Below are positions 1-46,304 of a stretch of 64,000 nt of DNA, one piece after another. Within the stretch, counting starts at the first letter, position 1. Each line of letters begins with the position of its first letter. This stretch comes from Synechococcales cyanobacterium CRU_2_2 (GTDB taxonomy: Bacteria; Cyanobacteriota; Cyanobacteriia; PCC-9006; JAAUQQ01), in NCBI GenBank assembly GCA_012034805.1, contig JAAUOP010000004.1:7843-71842 (forward strand), read 5' to 3'. The translations under genes and the position numbers were made by a program. The notes beneath the pieces were generated by a model. That model was not told the origin of the DNA, made no database searches, and saw only the letters and a list, made by a program, of their open reading frames with translations.

Positions 1-405
1 TTTTCCCATCCAAAACTCAGCCAAATTATTAATCGAGCCATTTACGGCGACGTTCCCTTTCGTGAAGAAGTGCTGAGGAAGACCCACGAAGTCTCAACGA
101 GCTACTTGCATGGGCTGGTTGTGCAGGGTATTGAGCGGGGCGATCTGGATCGTCGCACTGACCCGGACCTGGCCGTATTTGCGATTCAGGCACTCAGCGA
201 TGGGATGCGAACGTTTGTTCCTCGGCAGCTTGCGCTGAAGCCCGAAACGCTCGCAGAGGGAGCCCCTCAGTCACTGGACATGGTGGCGCTGAACCAAATT
301 TACGATGATGTGATCCAGCTTTTGGAGCGGGGGCTGGGAGGGGCTACGGGGGTTGAGCGATCGCAACTTAATGACTCACTGCAAGACAACGCTACGCCCC
401 ACTAA
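1..405 (+). CDS. TetR/AcrR-family transcriptional regulator, C-terminal part (5' end lies outside window)
   Basis: Frame 1 is open from base 1 to the TAA at 403-405. The sequence is helical and looks like a C-terminal ligand domain. It sits directly upstream of an RND adaptor/permease pair, the usual TetR-efflux arrangement. Confidence 0.6.
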   Translation, partial: FSHPKLSQIINRAIYGDVPFREEVLRKTHEVSTSYLHGLVVQGIERGDLDRRTDPDLAVFAIQALSDGMRTFVPRQLALKPETLAEGAPQSLDMVALNQIYDDVIQLLERGLGGATGVERSQLNDSLQDNATPH

Positions 406-524
406 AGCTTGCTGCCCAGCCCAAGCCAGATGAAGCCTGGGCTGAGCGATGCCAAATTAATCAACAACTTGATGCACGGGTCTTTTACGAAAGAGGCCCA
501 CAGATTTCTGCGCTCTTTCTCCAG

Positions 525-10378: not shown

Positions 10379-11158
10379 ATGACTGTTCAACCTCGCATCT
10401 CACTCATCATCACCATCTACAACCGAGAGTGCTACCTAGCGGAAACGCTAGGCAGTATCCTACGGCAAAGCGAAACAAACCTTGAACTACTAATCTGGGA
10501 CGACGGCTCAACCGACAACTCCCCCGCGATCGCCCAACAATACGCCGCCCAAGACCCCCGCATCCGCTACATCCGCAGCCCCACCAACCAAGGCTGTGCT
10601 CAAGCCCTCAAATCAGCCATTGCCCAAACCACCGCCCCCTATATTGCCTGGGTCGATAGCGACGACCTCCTCCATCCCACCGCCCTCGCTAAAACCGCCG
10701 CCATCCTCGACAAATACCAATCCGTCGGCCTCGTCTACACCCGCTACAACGTCATCGACGCGGCCGGAAAATTCCTCGGCCTAGGCAAACGCTCCCAAAC
10801 CCTCTACAGCAAAAATCAACTCCTCACCCTCCTCGTCACCTTCCACTTCCGCCTCATTCGTCGCTCCGTCTACGACCAAATCGGCGGCATCGACACCGAC
10901 TTTCCCTGCGCCATTGACTATGACCTCTGCCTACGCCTCTCTGAAGTCACCGACGTCTACCACATCCCTGAGCCCCTCTATGACTACCGCGTTCATCCGG
11001 ATAGCATTTCCATTAAGCGCCAAGCAGAACAGCAGTATTGGTCGAAAGTGGCGGTAGAGCGGGCGCTGAAGCGGAGAGGACTGGATTCAAAATATCGGCT
11101 GTATGTTTCGGATGAGGGTAAATTCTCTTTGCTCAAGAAAGATGCGGGGCTATTGTGA
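10379..11158 (+). CDS. glycosyltransferase family 2 protein
   Basis: ISLIITIYNRECYLAETLGSILRQ, LLIWDDGSTDNS and WVDSDDLL indicate a GT-A fold with a DxD motif. ATG 10379 is preferred over TTG 10370. Confidence 0.85.
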   Translation: MTVQPRISLIITIYNRECYLAETLGSILRQSETNLELLIWDDGSTDNSPAIAQQYAAQDPRIRYIRSPTNQGCAQALKSAIAQTTAPYIAWVDSDDLLHPTALAKTAAILDKYQSVGLVYTRYNVIDAAGKFLGLGKRSQTLYSKNQLLTLLVTFHFRLIRRSVYDQIGGIDTDFPCAIDYDLCLRLSEVTDVYHIPEPLYDYRVHPDSISIKRQAEQQYWSKVAVERALKRRGLDSKYRLYVSDEGKFSLLKKDAGLL

Positions 11159-11383
11159 CCTTCTGCCGCTTCCGCAGAAGGTCAAGGCGAAGGGGGGGAC
11201 GATCGCATGGGCTGTGAGATAGCAGGCAACCTCGGTTCGCAAGATGAGCCCCCTGACAAGGCCCGCAAATCGTTGTTTCCTCTAAAAATCACCGACTAGG
11301 AGAAGCGATCTCGCCAACTACCGACCCTTCTAGCCGGTTTGACAGGTGATGTAATTTGTTCGCCGATTGGACCATGCTGCGGT

Positions 11384-12136: not shown

Positions 12137-12668
12137 ATGCAAACCTTATCAGCGCAACGAATCCAAGCGGTGATCAGCCGCTTCGGCAAGACCAAGGAAA
12201 GCCAGTATCCGCCCTACGCCCGTGTCCAGTCGGTCCTGTTCACCTGGGAGAGCCAGGGCCAAACCCAAGAAGTTTGGAAGACCTATCCAGCCGAGGAAGC
12301 CCGCTTGCTTAAAGTGGGTCAACCCGTTTTTTTGAGCAGCCGAACCGGAGTCAACAACCAGCTCATTTGGGAGGTTGAAGTGCTCGGTGCCACTGCAGCG
12401 GCGTCACCTCCACCGGCAGCGACCCATGCTGCTCCAGCGCCCGCTCAATCCGCGAGCCAGCCGGTCACCCAGACTCCAACATCTACGGTTTCGCCATCGA
12501 AATCAGGAACTTTCCCACTGGGTTCAAACCCAAGCTCAGCTCTACGCCCATTGCTTCGGCAGTGCGGCCCAGGCGCTGACGGCCTACGAAGTCAGCGAGG
12601 AAACGATTCGTGCAGCGGCCTCAACGCTGTTCATCAGCGCGAGCCGAAAGTTCAACCTCGAACGCTAG
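12137..12668 (+). pseudogene. hypothetical protein, paralog of 14769-15284, with an apparent 1-nt frameshift near 12505
   Basis: The N-terminal part (frame of 12137) shares VQSVLF, WKT and EARL with the paralog. The C-terminal part lies in the frame of ORF 12375-12668: ELSHWVQTQAQLYAHCF..LFISASRKFNLE, against EISRWLAHQADLYACCF..LFISATRKFRLE in the paralog. Confidence 0.6.
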
Positions 12669-12742
12669 ACAGCCGGGCTATCCGCCCAAAGACGTAGGGA
12701 GATGCGAAAGCGTTTCTCTACGTTGTTTCATTCAACTCCCCA

Positions 12743-14725: not shown

Positions 14726-14768
14726 CTGACCCTTGACTATTTATCCGTCTCCCTCCGGAGTAATCCCC

Positions 14769-15284
14769 ATGAGCCCAACAACGAACCTGAGACCGATTGA
14801 AGCCACCGTCACCGCCTTCGGGCGCATCCAGGTGAGCCGCTATGGCGACGAGCAAGTGCAGTCAGTGCTGTTTGAGCGCTGGGACCGCCACGACGAGAGC
14901 CGCAAGATATGGAAGACCTTCAGCGTTGCCGAGGCACGGCTATTTCGCAAGAACCAGCAGGTGCGACTGACCCCGAGCTGGCGCAACGAGCGCCAGAGCT
15001 GGAGCGTAGAACGCCTGGGAGAACCCCCCGTAGGGTCACCGCCGCCCTATCCGACCAAGTCCCAGTATCAAGAACCGGAGCCAGAAATGACCGTGTCTGG
15101 GACGGGTGATGCGACGGTTGGTGAGATCAGCCGCTGGCTGGCCCACCAAGCGGACCTCTACGCCTGCTGCTTCAGCGAAGCCCAGCGCGCCCTGAGCCCC
15201 CAAGCGCCCCAGGAAGAGACCGTGCGAGCCTGCGCTTCAAGCCTATTCATCAGTGCCACGCGGAAGTTTCGCCTAGAAACCTAG
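14769..15284 (+). CDS. hypothetical protein (intact paralog of 12137-12668)
   Basis: ATG 14769 is preceded by GGAG. It is homologous to the 12137 gene at both the N and C termini, with a P-rich linker between them. Confidence 0.6.
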   Translation: MSPTTNLRPIEATVTAFGRIQVSRYGDEQVQSVLFERWDRHDESRKIWKTFSVAEARLFRKNQQVRLTPSWRNERQSWSVERLGEPPVGSPPPYPTKSQYQEPEPEMTVSGTGDATVGEISRWLAHQADLYACCFSEAQRALSPQAPQEETVRACASSLFISATRKFRLET

Positions 15285-18006: not shown

Positions 18007-18225
18007 GTGGCCACCCTCACCATCCGCATCCCCGACGATAAGCATAATCGCCTCAAGCAGTTCGCAGCGGCGCGGAACATCAGCATGAATAAGCTGATGG
18101 AAGAGCTGTCAACCGTTGCGCTGACTGAGTTTGATGCTCACAACCGTTTTCGTTTGCTGGCTGAGCGGGGTGATAAAGCCGTGGGGCTAAAGCTGCTGGA
18201 TAAGTTAGATCAGCTCAGCGATTAG
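18007..18225 (+). CDS. ribbon-helix-helix (CopG/Arc-type) antitoxin-like protein
   Basis: 72 aa. TLTIRIPDDKHNRLKQFAAARNISMNKLMEEL fits an RHH fold. No toxin gene follows it. Confidence 0.65.
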   Translation: MATLTIRIPDDKHNRLKQFAAARNISMNKLMEELSTVALTEFDAHNRFRLLAERGDKAVGLKLLDKLDQLSD

Positions 18226-18234
18226 CAACCCGTT

Positions 18235-18372
18235 TTATCCCAGCGCCAGCTTTTGCAGTGTCCGCACCTGCGACTCCAGACGCTTCATCCGCTGATCCAG
18301 CCGGTTGGGCTCGGGCTGCTGGCCTGTGACCAGGAGGGCGATCGCGTTGGTGCTTAGTGAAGCCAATCGCAT
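18235..18372 (-). pseudogene. truncated paralog of the RHH gene at 19519-19734
   Basis: This 45-codon ORF ends NAIALLVTGQQPEPNRLDQRMKRLESQVRTLQKLALG. The paralog ends DAISLLITGKEPEPARLEQRMKRLESQVRKLQKVALS. The N-terminal RHH part is absent. Confidence 0.5.
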
Positions 18373-19514: not shown

Positions 19515-19518
19515 GGAT

Positions 19519-19734
19519 TTAGCTCAGCGCCACCTTCTGCAACTTCCGCACCTGCGACTCCAACCGCTTCATGCGCTGCTCCAGCCGAGCGGGCTCTGGC
19601 TCCTTGCCGGTGATCAAGAGTGAGATCGCATCCCTCACCAGCTCACTATCACTCTGTCCCGTCTCCTGCCCATAGGCCTGCATCGCTTCGTACAGGCTTT
19701 GGGGAATCCTGCCGCCCACTGCCACCATCGCCAT
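19519..19734 (-). CDS. ribbon-helix-helix-like small protein
   Basis: 71 aa. GGRIPQSLYEAMQAYGQETGQSDSELVRDAISLLI is followed by a C-terminal coiled coil. Confidence 0.55.
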   Translation of the reverse strand: MAMVAVGGRIPQSLYEAMQAYGQETGQSDSELVRDAISLLITGKEPEPARLEQRMKRLESQVRKLQKVALS

Positions 19735-20627: not shown

Positions 20628-21677
20628 TTACGATGCTTTCTTCTTAAGGCGACTGGCTAACCAACCCACTCCCATGAGTCCCAAGAGGCCCGAGGGCTCA
20701 GGAACAGACTGAGGTGTGCTTGTATCGTTATCAAAGGGTGGGACATCGAACGTGTTGTCGTCTCCGTCATCATCGACAGGCGGTGGGTCACCAGAGTTGT
20801 CATCATCGACAGGCGGTGGATCAGTAGGAGGATCGAATGGGTTTAGGTTGCCAAGTAATGCCATGCCATCATTTAGACATTCTTGGAAGAAGCTTGCGAC
20901 AAAATCACCGCTAGGTAATAGGTCTCTCGAAATCTGAAAGCCAAAGAGATAAGAGTTTTCTGTTGAAGAGAAAGAATCTAAGCTGAATCCTTGCTCGTAT
21001 AGAGCTGAGTAATTTAGAAAAGAGACATCTCCTACTCGGTTTCCACCTGTAAGAATATTGGGTGTAAACTCACGACCATAACCATAGGTGGAGTCTCGAT
21101 AATCTCCCCAATAATTATCATTCCAAGCTAAATCTCCGAAGGAGACATTGTCTCCACGTCCATAGTAATTAACTGAATTATAGTAACGGCCAATATTTCC
21201 ATAACCTGCATTCTTGTCTTGGACACCGATGGCTTGAATGTTGTCGTAGACGCCGGTGCCAATATAAGGGTCGGAATCATTGCCCCATAAGAATTTGACA
21301 CCTAAAACGTTGCCATGTTTGACATTGTCTCTAAAGTTACCACCACCAGTGAAGTCAAAGAAGAAATCGCCGTATCCAATATTATTGTTCTCAACGTCCC
21401 AAGTCCCAACCCTGTCTATGTTTAGGCCGGTATGATTGAGCTTAGAGAGGATACCAACGTAGACATTCTTGCCATCGTCCTTGATGCCCATGCCGAGCAT
21501 GTCAAAGGAGTTTCGGTGATTGCCCTGCCATACGCCTAAGTCGTCTCCGACTCCATCCGCAGAATAATCCCAAGTTTGTGCTTGAGAATTGATGGCTGTA
21601 GCAGCGATTAGGGTGGGGATAGAAGCAAAGATAAAGAGACTAGATAAAAGCTTATGATTCAATTTTTTGGAGATCAT
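20628..21677 (-). CDS. PEP-CTERM sorting-domain secreted protein
   Basis: There is an N-terminal signal peptide (LLSSLFIFASIPTLIAATAINSQAQ). The C-terminus, VPEPSGLLGLMGVGWLASRLKKK, is a PEP motif plus TM helix plus basic tail. The gene is clearly AT-richer than its neighbours. Confidence 0.85.
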   Translation of the reverse strand: MISKKLNHKLLSSLFIFASIPTLIAATAINSQAQTWDYSADGVGDDLGVWQGNHRNSFDMLGMGIKDDGKNVYVGILSKLNHTGLNIDRVGTWDVENNNIGYGDFFFDFTGGGNFRDNVKHGNVLGVKFLWGNDSDPYIGTGVYDNIQAIGVQDKNAGYGNIGRYYNSVNYYGRGDNVSFGDLAWNDNYWGDYRDSTYGYGREFTPNILTGGNRVGDVSFLNYSALYEQGFSLDSFSSTENSYLFGFQISRDLLPSGDFVASFFQECLNDGMALLGNLNPFDPPTDPPPVDDDNSGDPPPVDDDGDDNTFDVPPFDNDTSTPQSVPEPSGLLGLMGVGWLASRLKKKAS

Positions 21678-22232
21678 TGATTGGCAAAGTAAAACTGAAT
21701 TGCTTCTATCTTCGTAAGAAGCGCTTGCATAGAATCATAGGATTATCTATTTTTGATGGTGACCGTAATGTCACAGATTTTTCTAAACTGAAAGCATTCT
21801 TTCTAATGATTAATACGCTGAAAACTTGTAAATAAATGGAAATGCTAAAACAAAAAATATTTTATCTATTTCGAAACTCAATAGAGTCTTTATAAAACTC
21901 TTTTGTTTGCTTTATATTGAGCCAATTATTCAGGAGAGTTACAGGTACATGGGGGCTGCTGCCGGGATCATGTCACCTTATGAGGAGAATAATAATTCAT
22001 TGAGATAAGCGGCTCGATGAGTGAGAACTTGAGGAACATTTTTGGCTTCCCACTGAGCCCCGGAGATTTTGACGCTGTTAGAAGGGGAAAAGTTGGGGCC
22101 AAAGGTTGAGCTAACGGCGGAGTGGGCTGGGGTGTTGCGGACGGTATTGCAGACGGTGTTGACGGCGAAGGATTGGGAGACGATCCTTCGGAGCTTGGCG
22201 TAGCCAATCGGCCAAGCTGTGAATTCCGAAAA

Positions 22233-22733
22233 TTATGGGGTCTTGCACGCTTTTGGTGATGCTGATGCGGTGCAAACCTCGGTGATCTTGACCTCCGGCT
22301 GGGATCTGAAATACATCCCGCCCCAGGCGATCGCCGGTGCCCCCTGACCGACATGGGCAGCATCATTGCGCCGCTGGCCGGTTGCAGAGGAATGAGAGCG
22401 CCCATTGATCGCCGCCTCAATCACAGGCCGCAGCTCATCGGTGTAGAACAATCGCCAGTAATGCTGTGAGCCTCGCCCGTCCGGCTGGCCAGCATAGGCC
22501 AGGTGCAGATTCGCGCTCATCTCCAAGTACATGCCGATGCGGGTTCGGCTCGCCAGCGAGGCTCTGAGCCTGGTGCGATTGGCCTTGCCAGTCGCCTTAG
22601 GCGTCAGTGCTTGGAGGCAGTCCAGTACGGCGGCGGTGCGCAGCTCCAAAAAGTGGGGCAGCTTGCCACCCAAGGAGACTAACCCTGGTTTGCTGAAATC
22701 CTCTGCTGGACCTGTTGCTTCTGGTGTTGCCAT
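22233..22733 (-). CDS. hypothetical protein
   Basis: 166-aa ORF divergent from parA. The frame stays open for about 80 more codons after the TAA at 22233-22235. Confidence 0.4.
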   Translation of the reverse strand: MATPEATGPAEDFSKPGLVSLGGKLPHFLELRTAAVLDCLQALTPKATGKANRTRLRASLASRTRIGMYLEMSANLHLAYAGQPDGRGSQHYWRLFYTDELRPVIEAAINGRSHSSATGQRRNDAAHVGQGAPAIAWGGMYFRSQPEVKITEVCTASASPKACKTP

Positions 22734-22821
22734 GAATCAGCGATCGCCCTAAAACCTAACTCACTCCAGCATCGTTCCCGGTTGATTTCCTGACCTATGC
22801 AGGGGGCAAGAATCGGGAGTC

Positions 22822-23069
22822 AAGGTATCTGTACTCTACACTTGCAGGTATCTGCACTCTGTACTTGTAGATATCTCGACTCCTAGATTCAAGAGGTCCA
22901 GGTACCTGTACCTTAGCGCCCTGGGAGAAGAAGCGGAGATAGAAATTCATGGAAGTCCTTGCTCAGACTGCCTGTAGCCGCTGCTTAGGGACAGCTTAGA
23001 AGTCTAGGCATCTGAAGTTGTAGATATCTGGACTCCTTGATATCTGGAAAACAATACATCTATACTCCC
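22822..23069 (+). repeat. cluster of about eight 15-17-bp boxes (A/G)(G/A)TA(T/C)CTnnACTC(C/T) upstream of parA; centromere/operator-like
   Basis: Boxes: aaggtatctgtactct (22822), caggtatctgcactct (22845), gtagatatctcgactcc (22867), ccaggtacctgtacctt (22898), ctaggcatctgaagttg (23004), gtagatatctggactcc (23020), ttgatatctggaaaac (23037), atacatctatactcc (23055). Confidence 0.6.
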
Positions 23070-23092
23070 CGATATTGAATAGGACCTAAACC

Positions 23093-23860
23093 TTGAAAAG
23101 CTGCTCAGCTATCTCCCTCTCCGGGGGCCAGGGTAAAACCACAACGATTTTTTTCACGGCGCTGCTCCTCGCCAAGAGTGGCAAAAAAGTGCTGGCGATT
23201 GACGCCGACCCCCAGGCGAACCTCACCTTCTACCTCGACCATGAGGTTCAACCCAACGAGCCCAGCTTGATGGAAGTGCTCAACAAACAGGTGAGCGTCG
23301 AAGACGGAATCTACGAGACCAAATATCCCAACCTCTATTTGATCCCAGCGGACCGGGGATTATTTAAGGTGTCGGAGTTCTTGAGCAGCAGCGGCGCTGG
23401 GGCATTCATCCTCAAGCAGCGGCTGCGCCAGGTCAAAGATATCTTCGACTTCGCCCTGATCGACGTGCAGCCTTCGCGATCGCAGATCTGTTCCACCGCT
23501 GCTGGAGCCTCGCAGTATGTGATCATCCCAACCGAAGCGAATGTGAAAGGCGTCAACTCTCTGGTGGAGACGATGAGTTTTTTGTCGGAGCAGGCGGAGC
23601 TGGAAGCTTTCGGTGGAAAGGTCTTGGGGGTGGTGCCCTTTCGCGATCGCTGGGTCGGCAACAACCAAACCACCGAAGGACGACAAAACATCGAAGCGAT
23701 GCAGGAGCTTGCCCAAGGGGCTCCGATTCTGCCTTCCATCCGTGAGTCGGAGCAATTCAAGAAGGCCATTCGTAGCGGGCAGCTCCTATCTGAGATAGGC
23801 TATCCCGACCTGCAATATCCGTTTGAGAAAATCGTTGAGGCCCTAACCCATGGCAGATAA
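23093..23860 (+). CDS. parA: ParA/Soj-family partition ATPase
   Basis: It has a deviant Walker A (SLSGGQGKTTT) and VLAIDADPQANLT. The start is a TTG. Confidence 0.85.
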   Translation: MKSCSAISLSGGQGKTTTIFFTALLLAKSGKKVLAIDADPQANLTFYLDHEVQPNEPSLMEVLNKQVSVEDGIYETKYPNLYLIPADRGLFKVSEFLSSSGAGAFILKQRLRQVKDIFDFALIDVQPSRSQICSTAAGASQYVIIPTEANVKGVNSLVETMSFLSEQAELEAFGGKVLGVVPFRDRWVGNNQTTEGRQNIEAMQELAQGAPILPSIRESEQFKKAIRSGQLLSEIGYPDLQYPFEKIVEALTHGR

Positions 23861-24452
23861 CAACGATGCCCTAGAACGCATTCGCAATCGAGCGCGTCCA
23901 GTCGTGCCTGCTCGGGATGCCTCGCTGACCTCTAGACCTGTAGATATCTCGACTCCTGTGAGTCAAGGTACCGCTAGTCATGCAGGTACCTCGACACCTG
24001 GAAACCTCAACTTAGATTTTCCGGCGGATGTCGTATTCAATGCGGAGCGGGCAAAAGGCTTGCAGAACAAGGATTCTAGGAGCCCAGGAGTCTCGATATC
24101 TGCAACTCCAGGTACCTCTAAGCAAGCCAGTCAAGGTGTCTCTAAGCAGGGGAGTCAAGGTACCTCTGCTCCTAGAATGCTAGATACCTCCACTCCAGCT
24201 ACCCCCATGGGCGAGGCACCGGAAGCTGAGGTCTTAAACACCAAGCAGAGCACGATGCGCTTGGAGAAGGACTTGAGCGAACGCCTGCAAAAGCTGTCGC
24301 GGGACAATGGTGTTTGTCGCGAGGCCTTGATCGAAGCAATGTTTGAATTTATCGAAGCCAACCCAGAAGCTGAGGCTGAGGTGCTGGAGGTCGCCCAAGG
24401 GAAAAACGAACAGCGCCAGCGATCGCCAACTACAAGCGCGCCCAGTCGATGA
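23850..24452 (+). CDS. partition partner protein with C-terminal ribbon-helix-helix-like domain (ParG-like)
   Basis: ATG 23850 overlaps the parA stop by 11 nt. The N-terminal half is rich in S/T/P/G/Q. The C-terminal MRLEKDLSERLQKLSRDNGVCREALIEAMFEFI is RHH-like. Confidence 0.6.
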   Translation: MADNNDALERIRNRARPVVPARDASLTSRPVDISTPVSQGTASHAGTSTPGNLNLDFPADVVFNAERAKGLQNKDSRSPGVSISATPGTSKQASQGVSKQGSQGTSAPRMLDTSTPATPMGEAPEAEVLNTKQSTMRLEKDLSERLQKLSRDNGVCREALIEAMFEFIEANPEAEAEVLEVAQGKNEQRQRSPTTSAPSR

Positions 24453-24599
24453 TGGAGCGCTTTTTGCAAAAGTGACGTTTTGGTATCGCGACTTAAAGGT
24501 TTCCAGTTGTGCAGGTATCTGGACTTCTAGGTACCTAGACTGGCCAGCCAGGCTAACCAACCACATTGATTTATCACATCGATTTAGAGGTGCAGCACC

Positions 24600-25016
24600 A
24601 TGGGGTTTCTTGACTACTGGCGTAAGCGCGAGCCAGAAGAGGTGCAGGGGAATTTGCTCAATCCCGAAGAGCAGGCGGATGCGATCGTGGACCGAGCGGA
24701 GCCGACTCGGCTGGCCTCGTACCATCGGCTCCATGGGGAGCTAAAAGCCCGAGGTGCGATGGACCAGACTCACCAAGCCATAAACCATCTACAGAATATT
24801 GAGATGCTTGATGATGACTATCGCAAGCTGTATGAGGAACTGGGCATCACGCTAGGACAGCGGGCCAAACTCCCCAAGGAAGCCAAGGAGGCGTTGATGG
24901 TGGGTGACATCGCCGCGTTCCACCAGATCATGAAGGACGACGCCCAGGGACACCAGGCCCTCATCGAAAGCAGCTACAAAGGTTTCAAGCAGGCGCGGAA
25001 GTTGTTTCCTTGGTAG
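24600..25016 (+). CDS. hypothetical protein
   Basis: 138-aa helical ORF in the same direction as the par genes. Confidence 0.45.
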   Translation: MGFLDYWRKREPEEVQGNLLNPEEQADAIVDRAEPTRLASYHRLHGELKARGAMDQTHQAINHLQNIEMLDDDYRKLYEELGITLGQRAKLPKEAKEALMVGDIAAFHQIMKDDAQGHQALIESSYKGFKQARKLFPW

Positions 25017-25032
25017 CAGCAGAGCTAAAATT

Positions 25033-25518
25033 GTGGCTATGAAGATCCAAGCGCTGCGGCAGCAAACCTACATGAGCTACGAAGGCCTGTGCATGAGCAC
25101 GGGGGCTTATTGTGGTGCGCCCTACGCCTGGGAAGTGAGCAGCGAAGACTACGATCGCCATCCCGTCACCAACAAAACCTTCAAAGACGCCATCCGCCAT
25201 GAGTTTGGCGATCTGCGCCTGAAGGAGACCTGGCGGCAAGCAGCAATTCACTACGCGGCTCGCTCCGTTGCCAAGGGAGCATTGGAGCCTTACCAGCTCG
25301 TCTGCTACATGGCGCTGCCCCAGCACATCTCTTCGCCGGTGCGCGATACCTATGGTCCAGAGGTGATCGAGGCGTTGCTGAGCTATCCAGAAGCAGCAGC
25401 GAGGATTCGGGCTGGACTGGAGCAGCTGGTCCAGGAGCTGCCCGAGGTGGCTGAAGAATTTGTGCGGACCTATGAAGGGGCGATCGCGCCATCGCCCTTC
25501 CAGCCGGTGGCAGCTTAG
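25033..25518 (+). CDS. hypothetical protein (possible N-terminal HTH)
   Basis: 161-aa ORF. IQALRQQTYMSYEGLCMSTG is weakly XRE-HTH-like. Confidence 0.4.
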   Translation: MAMKIQALRQQTYMSYEGLCMSTGAYCGAPYAWEVSSEDYDRHPVTNKTFKDAIRHEFGDLRLKETWRQAAIHYAARSVAKGALEPYQLVCYMALPQHISSPVRDTYGPEVIEALLSYPEAAARIRAGLEQLVQELPEVAEEFVRTYEGAIAPSPFQPVAA

Positions 25519-25553
25519 CGCTGACAGTTGCTGCGGCGATCGCCGCAGCGTTG

Positions 25554-25916
25554 CTAATCTTGGGCTTCGAGTTGATAGAAGCGCAGGGTGGGATGTTCGG
25601 CGATGACGCGCCAGGAGTAGTGCTGGGGGGCTGGGAACATGCGATCGCCACTGCGATAGCTAAATACGGGTTGTTGATGCTTAAGGCCTTCTAGGGCTTC
25701 GGCCTCGATGCCGGGGTAGGGATTGCGATTGTCATATAGGCAGAGGTGGGCCGTACTTCGATAGTCCGCTGCCAGCAGACTGGCCATGAGCCATTCCATC
25801 AGGGGCTGCATTTCTGTAACGCTGAGCCCGCTGTGGGAGTCGCCGTAGGTGTAGATGTTGGGCGACTGGGGTTGGGGGCGGAGCGCATTGAGCAGGCGTT
25901 GGAGCAGCTTAAACAA
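25554..25916 (-). CDS. hypothetical protein
   Basis: 120-aa ORF, convergent with the previous gene. Confidence 0.4.
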   Translation of the reverse strand: MFKLLQRLLNALRPQPQSPNIYTYGDSHSGLSVTEMQPLMEWLMASLLAADYRSTAHLCLYDNRNPYPGIEAEALEGLKHQQPVFSYRSGDRMFPAPQHYSWRVIAEHPTLRFYQLEAQD

Positions 25917-26116
25917 GGGCTTTGGGGGGGCGGGTTGAGGTGAGCTGCTACTGCATTCAGCGCTTTTGCTTGGAGCACAGGAAAATCTCAGCGAATGACT
26001 ATCAACCCTTCAGATAGGGCTCAGAGGGGCCTCAGGGAGGCGGTGCATTCTGTAGACATCGAAGAAAACACGGCGGACCAAACAACCGCCATTCACCATC
26101 TACGGAGTTCAAGATC

Positions 26117-26383
26117 ATGAAATTCATCACCCGCACCGTTTCCGCTGTTGCTTTCACCGCTACCCTGTTCGCTTCCGCTAGCGCTTTCGCCCTGACCCCT
26201 TTCGATGCGGCTACCCTGGCCCAGCGCGGTCAGCTCGAAGGCATCTCTGGCTATCAGGCGCTCCGGTCTGACCTTCTGAACCGCAGTGTCACCGGCGAGG
26301 ACATCCTCGAAGCCGCTGGCCTGGAAGTGAATGCTGCCGATGCCCACTTTGTTGAGAGCATCCTGCGCGATCGCAGCAACTAG
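26117..26383 (+). CDS. small secreted hypothetical protein
   Basis: 88 aa with a clear signal peptide (AVAFTATLFASASAFA). A terminator lies downstream. Confidence 0.55.
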   Translation: MKFITRTVSAVAFTATLFASASAFALTPFDAATLAQRGQLEGISGYQALRSDLLNRSVTGEDILEAAGLEVNAADAHFVESILRDRSN

Positions 26384-26482
26384 ATAACCCAGCTTCCCAA
26401 GTTTGACTCCGATTGGGAGTGGCCTGATAACCCGCTCCCTTTCTTGAGACCCAGAGACATTGAATGAATCTTTCCTACCCCG

Positions 26483-26512
26483 AGCAGGTGGCCAGCTGGT
26501 CACCTGCTTTTT
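26483..26512 (+). terminator. rho-independent terminator
   Basis: agcaggtg (26483-26490) pairs with cacctgct (26501-26508) and is followed by TTTT. Confidence 0.7.
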
Positions 26513-26758
26513 GCTGAGAGATGGTGAGGCGAGTTGCGATCGCCAGGGGCCATTGCTAAGGCTGAGCTGCCCTGATCGGGCAAATAAGGTGCGCTATCGC
26601 GCCGCTATTACCGTCGTTCCCCCCTCGCATTATTCGCCCCCTCGGGGGGCGGCTCCAGCGGTCGCCCGCTGGCCGGTGCGGCTCTGGCAGCTCGTCTGGG
26701 TCGGGTTCGTCGCCTGCCTTCTTCGGCTTCTGCAGTTTAGTGGGTCTGGTTCGGTTCT

Positions 26759-26781
26759 GGGGGCTTCGGCCCCCTTTTTTT
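26759..26781 (+). terminator. rho-independent terminator with a UUCG tetraloop, no recognisable gene upstream
   Basis: gggggc-ttcg-gccccc (26759-26774) is followed by T7 (26775-26781). Confidence 0.7.
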
Positions 26782-26984
26782 GTGGCGATTGTAGTATTTC
26801 CAAGCAATGCTGTCTGCCTCGCTTTGGGGGCCAACCCGTTGCGAATGCGAAAACTTGAGCCGCTGGCGCGAAAACTGCCCCTGTCCGCTGCGCTCCCATC
26901 GGCAGCAAATCTCATCCGTCGGAGTGTGCTCCGCTGCGCTCCGCCCACCCCGCAATCTCCCCCCTCCCGTCCCCCCCAGGGGGG

Positions 26985-27167
26985 AATGTCACTCCCCTGT
27001 TTTATCTGCGTTAAATTAACCGTCTCGATTTGCTTCAAACCCTCTACGGTCAAATCACGGTTCCTGCTGCCGTCCAACGGGAGTTGTAAGCAGGCCAAGC
27101 TCAGGGACTCAGCGTCCCGCCTGTTGAGACATTGGGCTGGGTAACGCTGGAGGCGGCGAAATTCTGA
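26985..27167 (+). pseudogene. second, decayed DUF3368 (PIN-like) gene remnant
   Basis: It reads NVTPLFYLR-stop-INRLDLLQTLYGQITVPAAVQREL-stop-AGQAQGLSVPPVETLGWVTLEAAKF. In-frame TAA codons lie at 27012 and 27087. The remnant ends 22 nt before the GTCAA array. Confidence 0.5.
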
Positions 27168-27188
27168 GCGCTCCCGTTCAAGATGCCA

Positions 27189-27715
27189 TCAACAGCGTCA
27201 ACCCGGCGTCAAGCTCAAATCAAGCTGGTGTCGAAACTCCGTCAAGCTGCCGTCAAACGAGCGTCAAAAACTGTCAAATCTGAATCAAGCTGCCGTCAAA
27301 TGGGCGTCAGGCGCAAATCAAGCCGGTGTCAAAACGGCGTCAAAAAGCGTCAATCCGCCGTCAAGCTCAAGTCAAGCCGGTGTCGAAACTCCATCAAGCT
27401 GCCGTCAAACGAGTGTCAAAAACTGTCAAATCTGAATCAAGCTGCCGTCAAACGGGCGTCAAGCGCAAATCAAGCCGGTGTCAAAACGGTGTCAAAAAGC
27501 GTCAATCCGCCGTCAAGCTCAAGTCAAGCTGGTGTCAAAGCTCGGTCAAGCCGCCATCAAAACGGCGTCAATCAAGAATCAAGCCAGCATCAAAAAGCAT
27601 CAACCTCACCTCAAAGGTGAATCAAGGGGTTCTCAAACGGGCGTCAACGCTCTGTCACCCTGGCGTCAAAATTTGTCCCGTCTGCGTCAAACTGGCATCC
27701 ACCTACCGTCAAAAG
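27189..27715 (+). repeat. array of about 47 direct 11-bp units (7-nt core (G/C)(C/T)GTCAA plus 4-nt spacer) with a 152-bp higher-order repeat
   Basis: Hand-traced TCAA cores lie at 27198, 27209, 27220, 27231, 27242, 27253, 27264, 27274, 27285 and on to 27709. Spacing is 11 bp, occasionally 10. 27209-27360 and 27361-27512 differ at 7 positions by my count. Confidence 0.9.
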
Positions 27716-27721
27716 CGGAGT

Positions 27722-27976
27722 ATGAATTTGCGCAATGACCGCTTGGAGGGTAACCCAGCCACGCAAACTCCAACCGACCTGCTGCGCGAAGCCCTGGAGC
27801 TAAGCAAAGCAAAAGCCATCGCCCAGTTCAACCACCTGCCTGTCTTCAGTTGCTCTCTCCGGTCACGCTGGATTCAGCTATCAGGGACTAGAACTGTCGT
27901 CAGCAACTGTGTCTTGCATCAAGTCAAGTCCCGTATCCAGCAATATGTCCATTACTCGGTCAAGAGCCGTGTCTAG
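27722..27976 (+). CDS. possible short ORF between the two arrays
   Basis: ATG 27722 opens MNLRNDRLEGNPATQTPTDLLREALELSKAKAIAQFNHLP, which looks protein-like. The 3' half runs into the 12-bp repeats and may not be genuine. Confidence 0.25.
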   Translation: MNLRNDRLEGNPATQTPTDLLREALELSKAKAIAQFNHLPVFSCSLRSRWIQLSGTRTVVSNCVLHQVKSRIQQYVHYSVKSRV

Positions 27977-28175
27977 AACTATTTCCAGAACTGCATCCGG
28001 TAACCTATCCATTGCTGTGTCCAGCAACTAGGTCAAGTGCTGTGTCCAGGACTATGTCCAGTGGCGTTTCAAGTACCAGCTCCAGAACTGCGTCCAGTGG
28101 CGTGTTCCGCAACTGGTTCCAGCACCGGGTCCGGTAACCCTCTCGGGACCCACCTCCACCAGCCTCCCAGCCCGC
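27886..28175 (+). repeat. array of about 24 direct 12-bp units with a (G)TCCAG / TCAAG core
   Basis: Example units: gtgtccagcaac, gtgtccaggact, atgtccagtggc, agctccagaact, gcgtccagtggc, ggttccagcacc, gggtccggtaac. Occasional units are 13 nt. Confidence 0.75.
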
Positions 28176-28275
28176 CACGAGAAATTGGGGAGTCCAGGGG
28201 GCTAGTAGCGGCGGGCAAGCAATGCCCAAAATGGAACATTTTTCTAACCCAGAGCTTCAAACCCATGTAATGCTC

Positions 28276-29597
28276 CTGATTGACTGACAAAAGTCTAGTC
28301 AGGAGTGAATTGAACGGTAACGGACTGAAACTGCAATCGAAAGGACTTGTTGTGATGCTGCCCCCGAGAAGCCATAGCAGGCTCAGGGTCGTGGTTGGAG
28401 TGAAATTGGACATTACGAATCAGAAGCCAGCCATCAAGGAGGGCGGAGCGAATCCAATCAACGCCAAGGCGGAAATAGCTGTTGCCACGAAACCAATGGA
28501 CATCGACCCATCGACGTTTCCCCGATTCGACCACCTCAACGCCCTGGGCAGTGACGTAGAGCGTAGCGACAGCCAGAATGAAGCACAACCTTGAAAGGTC
28601 ACAGACCGAGCGAATCTCAGACTTTTGCAGATTCCAGCCGCTGGACTGGTCATCGAGGAAGGTCTCTTCAATATCAAACCTGAGGGCGTATTCCCTGAAG
28701 GTCTGTAGGGTGGTGGGTTCATCACTCACCACCGCCCAGAGTTCGCCGTTGATGCTGTTGCATCCGAAGATGACATGAACCGGGCCATACCACTGACCTT
28801 TATGGAGCTTGATGTTGTGGAAGCAGCGGACTTCACCGCGCCCAAGGTGGAAGGCTTTCGGCTGACACCAACCGCCTTGAGAACGCCAGAGCCAGGTGCA
28901 GGCTTTGATGCGAATGCGATAGTGCCAACCCAGTTTACGGATTGCACTCATGGCATCAGTGTGAATGAACCCGCGATCCGCCAGCAGAATTACCTTGGCT
29001 TGGGGGAGATAGCTCGCGGTGTGTTCGAGCATCTCGTGGTACTCGCTGAACGAAACCGAAGCGCTGCCATGTTTGAGCACGCGCCAGGCCACGGGCAAAG
29101 CTCGACCTCGGTGGACCACCGCCAAGCGAATCAGGCAGTACTCGTCCCAAAACAGCGTGGTATCCAGACTCAGATATAGGCAACGGTCTGTCCAATCGGC
29201 CAGGGCAGCTTGGATGATGGGTTTGTACAACCGATGAACGTTGATACGGCTATTGCCCAGCCAGCGGCGAATGCGTCGTTGGCGGCTTTCGGCATATTGT
29301 CCTCGGCAGGGCATGTACTTGGCCCATTTGGTGAGGCTAACTTCGCCGGTTTGAATCAGGGCCGCAACCATCCATAAGCAGGTACAAAGATGCGTCAGAT
29401 GCGCCCAGGGTAGATCTTGACCCAGCCAGGCTTTCAGGGCATCGTAGAGGCGGGAGTTTTTTTCACAGCGTTTTTTTGAGTTTGAGTGGTATCTGATTCT
29501 AGAACGCTGGCTCCCACTTCTTCATTCTATGAACGCCAGACTTATCTCGCTGCAAAGGTTTCACCGTGTTAACTCACATCTTTTGGCAGTCAATCAG
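28276..29597 (-). mobile_element. IS4/IS701-like insertion sequence (about 1.3 kb)
   Basis: Terminal inverted repeats are ctgattgactgacaaaag (28276-28293) and, as reverse complement of 29580-29597, ctgattgactgccaaaag (17/18 match). They enclose a DDE transposase. No target-site duplication was seen. Confidence 0.75.
28295..29371 (-). CDS. IS4-family DDE transposase
   Basis: 358 aa with LSLDTTLFWDEY, ILLADRGF and FDIEETFLDDQSSGWNLQKS. The N-terminus probably extends upstream (..RLYDALKAWLGQDLPWAHLTHLCTCLW) and may join a short GTG ORF across the T6 run at 29458-29463. Confidence 0.8.
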   Translation of the reverse strand: MVAALIQTGEVSLTKWAKYMPCRGQYAESRQRRIRRWLGNSRINVHRLYKPIIQAALADWTDRCLYLSLDTTLFWDEYCLIRLAVVHRGRALPVAWRVLKHGSASVSFSEYHEMLEHTASYLPQAKVILLADRGFIHTDAMSAIRKLGWHYRIRIKACTWLWRSQGGWCQPKAFHLGRGEVRCFHNIKLHKGQWYGPVHVIFGCNSINGELWAVVSDEPTTLQTFREYALRFDIEETFLDDQSSGWNLQKSEIRSVCDLSRLCFILAVATLYVTAQGVEVVESGKRRWVDVHWFRGNSYFRLGVDWIRSALLDGWLLIRNVQFHSNHDPEPAMASRGQHHNKSFRLQFQSVTVQFTPD

Positions 29598-29608
29598 CCA
29601 ACTATCTT

Positions 29609-29820
29609 ATTAGACTGAATCAGTTCCGTCTAATCCCTACAAATGGGGGTGTTATGCGGAACTGGTTCGGCCTGATTCTTCCAAAACGAGTATTAGACGG
29701 AATCGAATTCTGTACAACACCCCAAAACCGAAAATTAGGCCGAATCCAAGTTCCGTCTAATCCCGAATTCAGGGGATAAGGCCGAATTCTCTTCCGCATA
29801 AGATCTGCAATCTTCCGAAT
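29609..29820. repeat. patch of short direct and inverted repeats (TTCCGTCTAAT / ATTAGACGGAA, CCGAATTC), MITE-like
   Basis: agttccgtctaatccc occurs identically at 29622-29637 and 29749-29764. Inverted copies are attagactgaa (29609) and attagacggaa (29692). Confidence 0.5.
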
Positions 29821-30094
29821 ATGACGACCCAAAGACCCTGACATTCAAGAATCTTTGCACCAGCTTCCGCCGAATCCCCTCACCCAGAGATTCGGGCGCA
29901 TGGGCGATCGCCCACCCACCCAAACCTCCACCCCAGCCCCAACCTCCCTCAAGAACCACCAGAACATCAACAAAACCCGCAAATTAATAAAAAAGGTGTC
30001 AAATTTCCTCATCCTCCTGAGGAATTGGTATGGATCTAGAGAACGCCCTGCTGAAGACCCACGCCCGCATCGACATCTCCCCACCGGATCTCCT

Positions 30095-35250: not shown

Positions 35251-35967
35251 TTAAGATTCGGGCTGGAATTCAGGCGATTTGGATTCAGGCGATTTGGATT
35301 CAGGCGATTTGGATTCAGGCGATTTGGATTCGGGGGTGGGGGATTCGGGAGTAGGCAATTCGGGATTTGGAGGGTCGGGAGTTGGGGGGTCGGGGAGTTT
35401 TAGTTCTGCGGTGTATTTCCACTCCTCCAAAGGCCGGTTAATCGCGGGTTCAAAGTCTATGGAAACGAGGCGTACTGATAGCGTTGGGGCGTTGGGGGGG
35501 GTGTCGGTGAGCGCATAGAAGGCAGAGCGATCGAAATTGGCCTGACCCAAAACCAGCACGTGCTCCTTGCCGTTGGCCAGGGTGACATTGACGATCGCCG
35601 GTTGATCAAAGCCAAATTCGGCCTTGCGATCGCCCGCCACCTCCAGGGTCTGCTGCACATTGCCCGTGGCCAGTAAGTTGAGCAAAAACGCCACTGCCCC
35701 ATCACTGGCCTGAATGGTCTCGGGCTTCGTCATCCGCCAGTCGGACTCTCCTTCCGGCGGCGAGTCGCGCTTTTCGAAGGCCAGGGTCAGGTCGGGTCGC
35801 TGGATCTGAATGGCCTGAATCTCCGCTTCCTCAAATGCAAATAAATTCCCATCCGCGACATCGGCCTGCTCTGGCTTCGGAGCCAAAATCACCTCCGAGA
35901 CAAAGAATGCACCCATGCCCAGGGTTGCGACCAAAACCAGCAGAAATGTATTGCGTTGAACTTTCAT
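35251..35967 (-). CDS. DUF4340-like protein
   Basis: ATG 35967 is preceded by AAGGGA, and the N-terminus is a signal anchor (MKVQRNTFLLVLVATLGMGAFF). It lies downstream of the GldG-like gene, as in the common operon. The C-terminus has SPESK repeats. Confidence 0.6.
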   Translation of the reverse strand: MKVQRNTFLLVLVATLGMGAFFVSEVILAPKPEQADVADGNLFAFEEAEIQAIQIQRPDLTLAFEKRDSPPEGESDWRMTKPETIQASDGAVAFLLNLLATGNVQQTLEVAGDRKAEFGFDQPAIVNVTLANGKEHVLVLGQANFDRSAFYALTDTPPNAPTLSVRLVSIDFEPAINRPLEEWKYTAELKLPDPPTPDPPNPELPTPESPTPESKSPESKSPESKSPESKSPEFQPES

Positions 35968-39728: not shown

Positions 39729-40460
39729 CTAGCCAGAGCACTCGGGCTGACACCAAGACGAATGAGGCCTAGGCGGCTGGGGCCGAGTTGGGGCGATCGC
39801 CGCCCGATCATAGTTTTCGAGTGCCTCGGCCTCGCGACCCAAGGCCTGCGAAGCCACTCCGCGCTTCACCCAGGCTTTGCTGGCCATCGGGTCGAGGCGC
39901 AAGGCGCGATCGTAGCTGGCGATCGCCGCCTCAAATTGACCCAACTGATGCAACACCAAACCGCGACCGTACCAGTCTTCACTGTAGTCTGCTCGAATGC
40001 CCAGGGCCGCATCATAATTTTCCAAGGCTTGGGCGTAGCGACCGAGGTGATAGAGCGCCATGGCCCGACCGACAAAGGCTTCAGGGTAGCCAGAGCGCAA
40101 TTGGAGGGCCGTCGTGTAGCTGGCGATCGCGGCCCTCAGGTGATCGGAAACCGCCTCAGCGAAATTGCGTTGGCCCGCAACCGCCGGATGCGCCCCAATC
40201 CGCTCCGCCGAATTCCACAAGATGCGAGTCTCAAGCGTGCGAGTCTCAAGCGTGCGAATCTCAAGCGTGCGAGTCTCAAGTGCCAAGCCTTGAAGCGCGT
40301 TTCCCCGGCGCACCCAGAGGTCGGCATCATCTAGCTTGAGGGCAAGGGCGCAGTCGTATTGAGCGATCGCCTCGGCAAAGCAACCCTGTCGAAACCAGGT
40401 GTTACCCAATTGCTGTGCGCCTGATGGCGTTTGCTCAAGCGGAGAGATGCATTTGGACAT
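39729..40460 (-). CDS. tetratricopeptide-repeat protein
   Basis: There are several TPR units (AIASYDRALRLDP, ALENYDAALGIRADY). A 15-bp tandem repeat at 40224-40283 encodes ETRTLEIRTLETRTLETR. Confidence 0.8.
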   Translation of the reverse strand: MSKCISPLEQTPSGAQQLGNTWFRQGCFAEAIAQYDCALALKLDDADLWVRRGNALQGLALETRTLEIRTLETRTLETRILWNSAERIGAHPAVAGQRNFAEAVSDHLRAAIASYTTALQLRSGYPEAFVGRAMALYHLGRYAQALENYDAALGIRADYSEDWYGRGLVLHQLGQFEAAIASYDRALRLDPMASKAWVKRGVASQALGREAEALENYDRAAIAPTRPQPPRPHSSWCQPECSG

Positions 40461-40626: not shown

Positions 40627-41976
40627 CTAGAGATATCCCATGGGATCAACGGGCTCACCGTTCTGCCGCACCTCGAAATGTAAATGAGGCCCCGTGGACA
40701 ACCCTGTCGAGCCCGAGCGTGAGACAACCTGCCCCGGCTGGACGGCTTGGCCAGGGCTGACGGTCAGCTCATTGTTGTGGGCATAGAGCGTGGTGATGCC
40801 GTCGCCGTGGTCAAGAATCACGGCATTGCCGTAGCCGCCATACCAGTCCGCATAAATGACAACACCGCCCGCCGCCGCACCAATCGAAGTTTCGTAGTCC
40901 ACCGCAAAGTCAATGCCACTGTGGAAGCGCTCGGTACCCAAAACCGGATGCACGCGCCAGCCAAAAGGACTACTGATGGGTGCAGCCACCGGCATCCGCA
41001 AGGGACCGCCGCCCAAGAAGCCCGCATTCACACTCCGCTTGGCAATAAGTTCCTGAATCAACTGGGTCAAGTTTTCAGAGTCTCGCTGGAGTTGAATCTG
41101 GGAGGCTTCGAGGGCAGCGCGGTTATCCTTAAGCCGTTGTATGAGCACTGCTTGTTGTTTGCTTTTTTGCTCAAGGCCAGATTTTTGCATCAGCTGTCGC
41201 TGCCGCAGCAGGGCGATACCATTTTTTTGTTCTTCGATCTGCTCTTGTTGTTGTTGTAACTGGATGGCTTGCTGGGTAAGGTTGCTGAGACGGGTGCGAT
41301 CGCGCTCGTACAGCTTCTTCAGATAATACCGTCGTTGCAAGAACGCCCCGATCGAGTCACTTTCGAGTAACACCGCCCAGCCCTGGAGGCGCTGCTGACG
41401 CTGAAGAACTTGCAACCGGGCAACGGTGGAGTTGCGTTGCTTTTGGTAGGTCTGCTGGGACTGAGCAAGTCTGCCTTCTAGGCCTTTGAGATATTGCGCT
41501 GCCACATCAAGGCGCGCTTGGCTGTCAGCGAGGGCACCTTCGGTTTGGAGCAGGGTGTCCCGGAGATCCGTCAGGTCGCCGAGGGCCGATTGCTCAGCCT
41601 GTTTGATCCGTTTGGTGGCTTGCTCAACAGCTTGCTGACGCTGTTCAACTTGTTGCTGGCGCTGTTCAACCTGTTGTTGCTGCTGCTCGAGCTGTTGTTG
41701 TTCCTGTTCGCGCTGTTGTTGCTGTTGCTCAAAGTCCTGAAGGACAGTTTGGGCAATACTGCTTTGGGCAATGCTGCTTTGGGCAATGCTGCTTTGGGCG
41801 AAGGTTGGGGAGGGTGCTGCGATCGCCGGACATGGATCGCCCAGCAGGCACAAGAGGCCGAGAAGGTGGATGAGGGCGATCGCCACCTTGACTCTGGAAA
41901 ACAGTCGAAGCGCATCACGAGGGCACGGCTGGATTAGGATGAGGGAAGAGCGAAGGAAACTGCCGACGAAGGCCAT
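40627..41976 (-). CDS. M23-family metallopeptidase with Q-rich coiled coil (EnvC-like)
   Basis: The C-terminal LytM domain carries HSGIDFA..GNAVILDHG..TLYAHN..GPHLHFEV. Confidence 0.85.
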   Translation of the reverse strand: MAFVGSFLRSSLILIQPCPRDALRLFSRVKVAIALIHLLGLLCLLGDPCPAIAAPSPTFAQSSIAQSSIAQSSIAQTVLQDFEQQQQQREQEQQQLEQQQQQVEQRQQQVEQRQQAVEQATKRIKQAEQSALGDLTDLRDTLLQTEGALADSQARLDVAAQYLKGLEGRLAQSQQTYQKQRNSTVARLQVLQRQQRLQGWAVLLESDSIGAFLQRRYYLKKLYERDRTRLSNLTQQAIQLQQQQEQIEEQKNGIALLRQRQLMQKSGLEQKSKQQAVLIQRLKDNRAALEASQIQLQRDSENLTQLIQELIAKRSVNAGFLGGGPLRMPVAAPISSPFGWRVHPVLGTERFHSGIDFAVDYETSIGAAAGGVVIYADWYGGYGNAVILDHGDGITTLYAHNNELTVSPGQAVQPGQVVSRSGSTGLSTGPHLHFEVRQNGEPVDPMGYL

Positions 41977-46200: not shown

Positions 46201-46304
46201 GCCAAGGCTGTCGGAGTCGAGGCCGTCGGAGTCGAGGCTGTCGGAGTCGAGGTCGCCTAAGCCGAGGCTGTCTGAAGTCAGGCCAGTCTGAATCCGAGGT
46301 CCGA

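Follow-up and report, generated by a model that had tools for sequence, protein, structure and literature searches.

What role, if any, is played by a long run of short direct repeats that present the same few nucleotides once per helical turn is the question raised by a 64,000-nucleotide stretch of contig JAAUOP010000004.1 from the Synechococcales cyanobacterium CRU_2_2 (assembly GCA_012034805.1; the whole stretch is referred to here as the window). The repeats, which are built on the short core (G)TCAA, form a chromosomal array of 527 bp, array 1, where an integrated plasmid-like island ends in decayed DNA (Table 1). The explanation that we favour, with a confidence somewhat below even, is that array 1 is a protein-binding platform maintained by selection at the level of DNA.

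All 48 TCAA tetranucleotides within 27178-27709 lie on the plus strand at steps of 11 bp, and the 10-bp steps recur at corresponding places from block to block, which agrees with an initial annotation of this DNA that had described cores of a single orientation with shorter steps at fixed places. Its head-to-tail arrangement also stands, but its count of about 47 units becomes 49 when the units are aligned in register. TCAA is perfect in 43/49 units, and the six imperfect units read TCGA (two units), TCAG, TCAC, CCCG and TCCA. Tandem Repeats Finder gives a period of 152 bp (2.5 copies, 91%, 27194-27571; in a wider row 3.0 copies, 83%, 27194-27647) and a weaker period of 76 bp, and 152 bp is the smallest near-perfect period of the array. 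The two best copies of this super-repeat are 95% identical and differ at exactly the seven positions counted earlier, all of them transitions. In the 152 bp that follow the second copy there are 62 ungapped mismatches to it and whole units have been lost; across the right flank TCAA and its phase are mostly retained while the spacers are randomised. The mean unit length is 152/14 = 10.86 bp, in line with the 10.9-bp period and the near one-face placement of the cores proposed before. About 11 bp per turn is expected for negatively supercoiled DNA in cells, and the spacing fits this value, so that the cores could share one face of the helix in vivo.

Three TCAA at 11-bp spacing occur 21 times in the window (0.00 expected), five at that spacing nine times (0.00 expected) and GTCAA-N6-GTCAA 13 times (0.14 expected). 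Every one of these matches falls within array 1, which is also the sole phased chain of at least seven units of any 4-mer in the 64 kb. With phased TCAA expected at 0.00, a chance origin of the pattern is excluded.

Conservation within the unit is very uneven. Over the 49 units the information content at T, C, A and A is 1.9, 2.0, 1.5 and 1.6 bits, that of the preceding G is 0.8 bits, and every other position has at most 0.5 bits (about 0.4 at -2 and -3). The information is thus confined to (G)TCAA, a core of 4-5 nt that is shorter than the 7-nt core (G/C)(C/T)GTCAA first proposed. Within one 152-bp copy the pairwise identity between units is 0.96 for TCAA vs 0.40 for the other columns, and in the right flank it is 0.87 for the core vs 0.33 outside it. 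Among 35 non-redundant units the mismatches to the consensus number 17, 16, 13, 1, 0, 3, 2, 20, 14 and 23 by column (heterogeneity p = 3e-15), and a comparison of unit k with unit k+7 gives 27/28 matching core positions and 20/42 matching non-core positions (Fisher p = 1.5e-5); these p-values overstate independence because the units share ancestry, but the contrast is still large. That TCAA is so much better kept than the spacers argues for constraint on the DNA itself. In a dinucleotide wedge model with Bolshoy-Trifonov parameters, no 300-bp segments of the 64 kb are predicted to be more curved than those in array 1, with 14 degrees per turn vs 6.2 +/- 1.2 and a radius of about 14 nm; the modelled path would take about 260-270 bp per turn given a helical repeat of 10.9-11.0 bp.

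The array does not look like a gene. Its minus strand contains 51 stops, as had been noted, and its plus strand is stop-poor; the earlier statement that all three plus frames stay open is correct only in this looser sense, as each frame has one TGA (at 27281, 27433 and 27618). The open plus frames include one of 145 codons with an ATG (27183-27620) and another of 216 codons. In the long open reading frame (ORF), TCAA is retained to the same extent whichever of the three codon phases it falls in, suggesting that the constraint is not on a protein, and the translated array finds only itself among 5.8 billion proteins and nothing among 1.84 billion representatives. A protein-coding repeat was therefore rejected on its 11-bp period, the TGA in each frame and the lack of homologues, and the view of the array as a non-coding, stop-poor repeat is upheld. 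A structured RNA was rejected as well: both strands fold much as shuffled sequence does (z = -0.27 and +0.82) and the array has no match in Rfam. A consensus scan detected no promoter-like site in or beside array 1.

A second copy exists on L001, a 6.6-kb short-read contig of a metagenome-assembled genome (GCA_012032025.1) that equals window positions 21166-27901 and that a database match of a neighbouring ORF assigns to Synechococcales cyanobacterium RU_4_20. Its array shows zero substitutions relative to array 1 and has one 152-bp unit fewer. The presence of the array on an independent contig means that it is not an artefact of one assembly; the copy number is uncertain, as it either varies or collapsed in the short-read assembly. 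The island ParA protein is also encoded on L001 and on the Logan contig L002.

L001 appears to be the only other instance of array 1 in the collections searched. A blastn search of array 1 and both flanks against 72,556 plasmids gave no match, although the low-complexity filter may mask the array. The pattern of five TCAA at 11-bp spacing, run on genome and viral contigs, is too loose to find species-level relatives in genome contigs, and the matches listed are mostly unrelated simple 11-bp tandem repeats whose units, unlike those of array 1, are nearly identical. A stricter pattern (TCAAGC-N4-GTCAAA-N7-TCAA-N7-TCAA), applied to metagenome and viral contigs, picked up nothing but GGGGTCAA satellites, which are unrelated and lie in G+C-rich sequences. 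The refuting condition set earlier, that the repeat prove common and dispersed with no linked gene, is decided neither way: plasmid, metagenome, viral and protein collections yielded no relative, with or without a gene.

Several arrays met during these searches are recorded here in their own right. JGI contigs L244, L247, L252, L258, L262 and L263 (Ga0307488, Ga0307489) carry up to about 20 11-bp units of GGGGTCAAcct, with the period and pentamer of array 1 in an unrelated context. Several of these arrays have flanks in common, with tttagcttcaagcgctgaa on the upstream side and gccctacc on the downstream side, as expected of a dispersed repeat element. We take the contigs to be eukaryotic, as they lack a bacterial-type gene density and one ORF among them is AP2-like by eye. 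In Alkalinema pantanalense CENA528 (L020, 3029-3076), five intergenic 11-bp direct repeats TGTCAAnTACn lie between ORFs that by eye resemble a sigma-70-family protein and an Old Yellow Enzyme-type reductase; the site is small and operator-like, and its core and period are those of array 1. Perfect 11-bp TCAA tandem repeats, such as tcgtctgTCAA x33, recur in several genomes of ammonia-oxidising archaea (Nitrososphaeraceae; L019 320-675, L023 5316-5440, L017 6553-6600).

The contrast between core and spacer and the predicted curvature appear best explained by a protein-binding platform. All through the 49 units, neither the phase nor the orientation is lost, although the spacers are nearly random. 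A head-to-tail geometry on one face of the helix is used by winged-helix proteins of the OmpR/PhoB type, by ribbon-helix-helix proteins of the ParR type and by helix-turn-helix (HTH) proteins of the StbA type. Known systems with direct repeats once per turn, such as the parC iterons of plasmid R1 (PMC2241845), provide a precedent. On array 1, the same-orientation sites would follow one another at each turn of slightly underwound and strongly curved DNA; many copies of one sequence-specific protein would bind them head-to-tail on one face and would cover the 0.5 kb with an unbroken nucleoprotein filament that is itself curved. The array belongs to the lineage-specific, decaying cargo end of the integrated plasmid-like island. 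Its most plausible past role would be that of a cis-acting site of a mobile element, whether for pairing, for titration or as a kind of centromere. That a protein binds here, which protein it is and what role it has in the cell are matters that we infer. Array 2, a weaker array in the same orientation that lies downstream, is probably a platform likewise. Its core is TGTCCAG or GTC(C/A)AG, and it has a higher-order period of 73 bp and a 25-bp period row in Tandem Repeats Finder. A single 13-bp step near 28030 breaks every reading frame and leaves the DNA register intact, which counts in favour of a platform at the DNA level.

Several points weigh against this explanation. The units of the array share ancestry, so the column tests are not fully independent, and the curvature estimate depends on the parameters assumed in the wedge model. 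No binder is identifiable in the window. No Trans_reg_C, ParM or Rep domain was found with Pfam among about 65 of its ORFs, and no GTCAA-N6-GTCAA site that could serve as an autoregulatory operator occurs elsewhere in it. As no relatives were found in the collections searched, the array lacks the cross-species conservation by which function is usually recognised. Around it lie an orphan ORF, an insertion sequence (IS) and a gene remnant that is itself unverified, and the array may now be a non-working relic.

The main rival is a serious one, which we nevertheless consider unlikely: a neutral satellite with neither binder nor function, left behind by replication slippage and unequal crossing-over as mobile DNA decayed, in which the higher-order structure records successive block duplications. 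Much of what has been described would suit it. The array is an orphan in run-down surroundings, the near-identical strain differs from it by one 152-bp unit, and, as in satellites, its middle copies have become alike and those at the edges have degenerated. All seven differences between copies are transitions, which fits unselected drift, although seven sites are too few for a test. The genome has many tandem repeats, simple 11-bp TCAA repeats are common in unrelated genomes, and similar GGGGTCAA satellites of 11 bp occur in eukaryote-like metagenome contigs. However, neutral decay should strike all 11 columns alike, and TCAA identity is 0.87-0.96 vs 0.33-0.40 elsewhere; the phase persists even where whole units were lost; and there are no near-perfect adjacent 11-bp units of the kind that would mark recent slippage of single units. 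With a non-core identity of 0.40, array 1 is not a simple tandem repeat at the 11-bp level, and the label of satellite fits the 152-bp order only.

The remaining rivals fare less well. We regard it as very unlikely that the array represents origin or copy-control iterons of the integrated plasmid, with half-sites spaced by 11 bp and a 22-bp dimer, TCAAGCnnnnnTCAAA, bound as by a two-domain Rep protein. Head-to-tail iteron arrays do occur in plasmid origins, array 1 lies within a plasmid-like island, and the 22-bp dimer TCAAGCYRSYRTCAAA recurs about nine times in it. Yet no Rep-type protein is encoded by the ORFs scanned, the DNA next to the array offers no AT-rich region for unwinding (G+C is 52% in the 1-kb interval that includes the array; no search was aimed at DnaA boxes), and the array is at the decayed island edge next to an IS. 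To our knowledge, 49 units far exceed what is found in plasmid origins.

Slightly less probable again is a centromere (parC/parS-like) for the island's own partition module, ParA and its strand-helix-helix partner. A centromere was the leading proposal of the initial annotation, which had named the island ribbon-helix-helix (RHH) proteins (18007, 19519, 23850) as proteins to be tried for binding. The pair lies 2.7 kb upstream of array 1, and homologues of the partner, some of them named ribbon-helix-helix by NCBI, adjoin ParA genes on 12 cyanobacterial plasmids. Proteins of the RHH class bind direct repeats once per turn, as R1 ParR does (PMC2241845), and the extended par box of the module, GAGTCAAGGTAYCT, includes GTCAAG, which is present in some array units. 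However, the module has DNA boxes of its own, with a palindromic core AGRTAYCT followed by GACTC. Seventeen are found at 22.8-24.6 kb, about 0.5 per kb in the rest of the window, and none (searched as G[AG]TA[TC]C) at 26-29 kb, the array included. The seventeen lie ahead of parA, within the partner gene and just past its end. Plasmids of Nostoc, Calothrix and Crinalium (L242, L243, L269, L270, L271) also have box clusters immediately ahead of parA, as does the Logan contig L272 (75% protein identity); the boxes take the forms AGATATCT, AGGTATCT or AGGTACCT, and in the window nGACTC follows. L272 shares the whole module parA, partner, orf138, orf161 (window 23093-25518, L272 499-2777) at 71-74% nucleotide identity. 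None of these six loci (13 to 34 kb each) contains a phased 10-12-bp array of at least six units. In the window, four ORFs, two terminator-like sites and the gene remnant separate module and array. Since array 1 lacks the module's boxes and does not travel with the module, it does not appear to be the module's centromere, and the comparison largely refutes this proposal, which indicates that the array is independent of the neighbouring ParA/RHH module.

The same negative result points to the DNA boxes that the ParA/"McdB-like" module really uses. The ATPase is closely homologous to the "McdA" of the Cyanothece PCC 7424 plasmid. The partner is homologous to the "McdB" of that plasmid, 6NOY, a structure of strand, helix, helix and then coiled coil from a protein reported as not binding DNA (PMC6582323), and it has a weak match to an Arc-like repressor family as well. 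Conserved boxes upstream of the ATPase gene suggest that the partner binds DNA sequence-specifically and may be a centromere or operator binder of a true DNA partition system.

A transcribed product is highly improbable, whether a highly basic repeat protein read from the ORF of 145 codons or an RNA whose GUCAA (or UUGAC) repeats would act as a sponge for an RNA-binding protein. The long open frames of the stop-poor plus strand would allow it, but TCAA occupies all codon phases, each frame has its TGA, protein and Rfam relatives are lacking, folding is as in shuffled sequence, no promoter-like site is present, and two terminator-like hairpins lie just ahead of the array. Scarcely credible is the idea, also raised initially, of a sponge in which about 45 minus-strand TTGAC motifs titrate RNA polymerase holoenzyme or sigma region 4: TTGAC(A/G) does occur in nearly every unit, but the consensus scan finds no promoter-like site and no paired -35/-10 elements within the array, and we know of no part played by 11-bp phasing in -35 recognition.

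If array 1 is a binding platform, it has several partial counterparts. The closest in geometry is R1 parC, with two sets of five 11-bp iterons flanking the par promoter; as in array 1, they are head-to-tail direct repeats, one per turn, and those of R1 are bound cooperatively in a U-shaped complex (PMC2241845). Array 1 differs in its 49 contiguous units, its 152-bp higher order and its unrelated sequence, and whereas the R1 iterons adjoin parM and parR, it has no promoter, ParM or ParR gene alongside; of the features of a type II parC, it shows the 11-bp direct iterons and lacks this adjacency. On the F plasmid, sopC directly follows sopB. It comprises 12 direct repeats of 43 bp, each with one 16-bp inverted repeat for SopB (PMC3177203), and resembles array 1 in that its whole length of about 0.5 kb is built from longer blocks in tandem, but array 1 carries asymmetric 5-mers at each turn and has no cognate gene adjacent. 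TP228 parH has short degenerate boxes and spacers that are bound by the RHH protein ParG (PMC3130281), and the island here likewise encodes a ParA plus an RHH-like protein; however, parH is about 100 bp long and adjoins the par genes, and the par boxes of the window are absent from array 1.

The operators of OmpR/PhoB-type proteins (pho boxes; Streptomyces PhoP and SARP units) are a fair analogy. Winged-helix domains bind them head-to-tail, and in each unit of 11 bp the 5' positions are conserved and the 3' spacer is less strict, with seven conserved and four spacer positions. Array 1 has this period, and by information content its conserved core comprises 4-5 nt. Units such as cTGTCAAatct and gTGTCAAaacg resemble CTGTCAT, which we take to be the half-site of the Escherichia coli pho box. 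Those operators, however, have 2 to about 9 units over a -35 element, and array 1 has 49 with no promoter and no -35 overlap; the ORF downstream of it is an orphan, and the receiver proteins found in the window are of the CheY, PatA or CheA type. R388 stbS reportedly consists of ten 9-bp direct repeats in two groups of five, in which spacers of 2 bp give an 11-bp period; it is said to be bound by the HTH protein StbA and to need no plasmid NTPase. Array 1 has 49 units against its ten, has a different sequence and has no StbA-like gene that we could see. Variable number tandem repeats (VNTRs) of 11 bp with TCAA, which are widespread in archaeal, bacterial and viral contigs, share the period and the tetranucleotide, but VNTR units are nearly identical and array 1 keeps the core only.

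Arrays of direct repeats once per turn are thus already known, and array 1 is an extreme, unattached variant of them, distinguished by its 49 units, its 152-bp higher order, a related second array and the absence of a cognate gene. We consider it doubtful, although worth stating, that array 1 is a working, free-standing platform on which an unknown protein of the host or the element occupies all 49 sites and wraps about two turns of curved DNA. It would then be about five times the length of the longest once-per-turn iteron centromere described, and an integrated plasmid in a polyploid cyanobacterium would use it as an outsized centromere, for pairing or to titrate a regulator, with array 2 as a second, older platform of this kind.

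The surroundings of array 1 run in the order of terminator-like hairpins, gene remnant, array 1, 84-codon ORF, array 2, IS and MenA-like gene, so the second array and the IS reported alongside it are both in place. The label of PIN-like given to the remnant found no support from Pfam, which was blank on its 50-residue fragment. The 84-codon ORF is probably not a gene, as it finds only itself among the 5.8 billion proteins and has no credible Pfam match. Array 1 is bracketed almost exactly by an imperfect inverted repeat of 22 nt (27135-27156 / 27739-27760; 17/22 positions, 77%, complementary, with the perfect end GGCTGGGT/ACCCAGCC), which we judge compatible with chance at the seed length used. 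HIP1 sites (GCGATCGC) are missing from 26537-29903, a region of 3.4 kb that covers the arrays and the IS and in which about four are expected; elsewhere in the window, island included, their density is about 1.25 per kb.

The window as a whole is cyanobacterial chromosome, with 80 HIP1 octamers vs about 1.5 expected. Its chromosomal genes encode an AcrB-family transporter, a UbiA-family prenyltransferase (MenA-like), a MenC-like enzyme, AMP-binding enzymes, IF-3, a PheS-type tRNA synthetase subunit, SurE and a chemotaxis-type cluster. The plasmid-like island described earlier is borne out by a mosaic of mobile genes at about 11.4-29.7 kb, for which no bounding att-like direct repeats were found. 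These genes include a RadC-like gene, an integrase fragment, UPF0175, the ParA-type ATPase with its partner and small unknown ORFs. As to the several RHH proteins said to be encoded nearby, the match of the partner at 23850 to a strand-helix-helix structure bears this out, while the small ORFs at 18007 and 19519 have only weak RHH-family matches below the Pfam curated cut-offs. The ORF at 18007 is directly upstream of a weak GNAT-like ORF, an arrangement that would be typical of toxin-antitoxin loci; together with UPF0175 and the second RHH-like ORF, these look like toxin-antitoxin genes. Pfam, NCBIfam and PHROG give no match for ORFs 138, 161, 120 and 88; ORF120 is an orphan, and ORF161 has relatives, which led to L272.

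Some further repeats were seen in the window. Island ORFs at 12137-12697 and 14733-15284 are paralogous and match no family, sharing an N-terminal motif QSVLF..W..WKT...EARL and a C-terminal motif SSLFISA.RKF.LE. A 112-bp direct repeat with 80% identity (18234-18345 and 19518-19629) has one copy just after the RHH-like ORF 18007-18225 and the other overlapping ORF 19519-19734 on the opposite strand. Many tandem repeats of 15 bp, or five codons, are near-perfect; they occur at 35268-35399, 40223-40286, 41632-41799, 46023-46423, 56013-56041, 62946-63021 and 63256-63300, by their coordinates mostly in chromosomal ORFs (DUF4340, TPR, M23 peptidase, CheA/Hpt, GGDEF-EAL), and the genome seems prone to in-frame tandem duplication.

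Table 1. Coordinates of array 1, its neighbours and the par boxes; positions refer to the window unless a contig is named.
Feature	Position	Strand	Description
Array 1	27189..27715	+	49 head-to-tail 11-bp units (10 bp at fixed places), core (G)TCAA, spacers variable
Two 152-bp higher-order copies	27209-27360 and 27361-27512	+	14 units each, near-identical
Right flank of array 1	27513..27715	+	Units 31-49, progressively degenerate
Array 2	27886..28138	+	About 21 units of 12 bp, consensus TGTCCAGnACnn, some GTCAAG
ORF between arrays	27722..27976	+	84 codons, runs into array 2
Short ORF remnant	27010..27167	+	Internal stop; ends 22 nt before first unit
Two intrinsic-terminator-like hairpins	26759-26782 and 26977-27005	+	With T runs, upstream of array 1
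IS element	28276..29597	-	18-bp inverted repeats 28276-28293 and 29580-29597, 94% complementary
Transposase of IS	28295-29371	-	DDE transposase, DDE_Tnp_1
ParA/McdA-like gene	23093-23860	+	6NOO ("McdA", Cyanothece PCC 7424 plasmid), E = 6e-76
Strand-helix-helix partner	23850-24452	+	200 residues; 6NOY (same plasmid's "McdB"), E = 3e-6
Par-box cluster nnAGRTAYCTnGACTC	22815..24545	+	17 boxes upstream of, inside and downstream of par operon
Boxes in L242	~11130-11190		
Boxes in L243	~2570-2640		
Boxes in L269	~4705-4780		
Boxes in L270	~8380-8410		
Boxes in L271	~12420-12500		
Boxes in L272	~290-460		

If array 1 proves to be only a satellite, it would still be instructive, since a mutational explanation would be needed for the survival of a 4-bp core in units that are otherwise becoming random. 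Should a protein indeed coat it, array 1 would be the longest known binding platform with one site per turn in a bacterium and a natural prokaryotic example of a higher-order-repeat, centromere-like structure. It would then be useful for the study of how filaments assemble cooperatively on curved DNA, and genetic tools for cyanobacteria might employ it for maintenance or titration.

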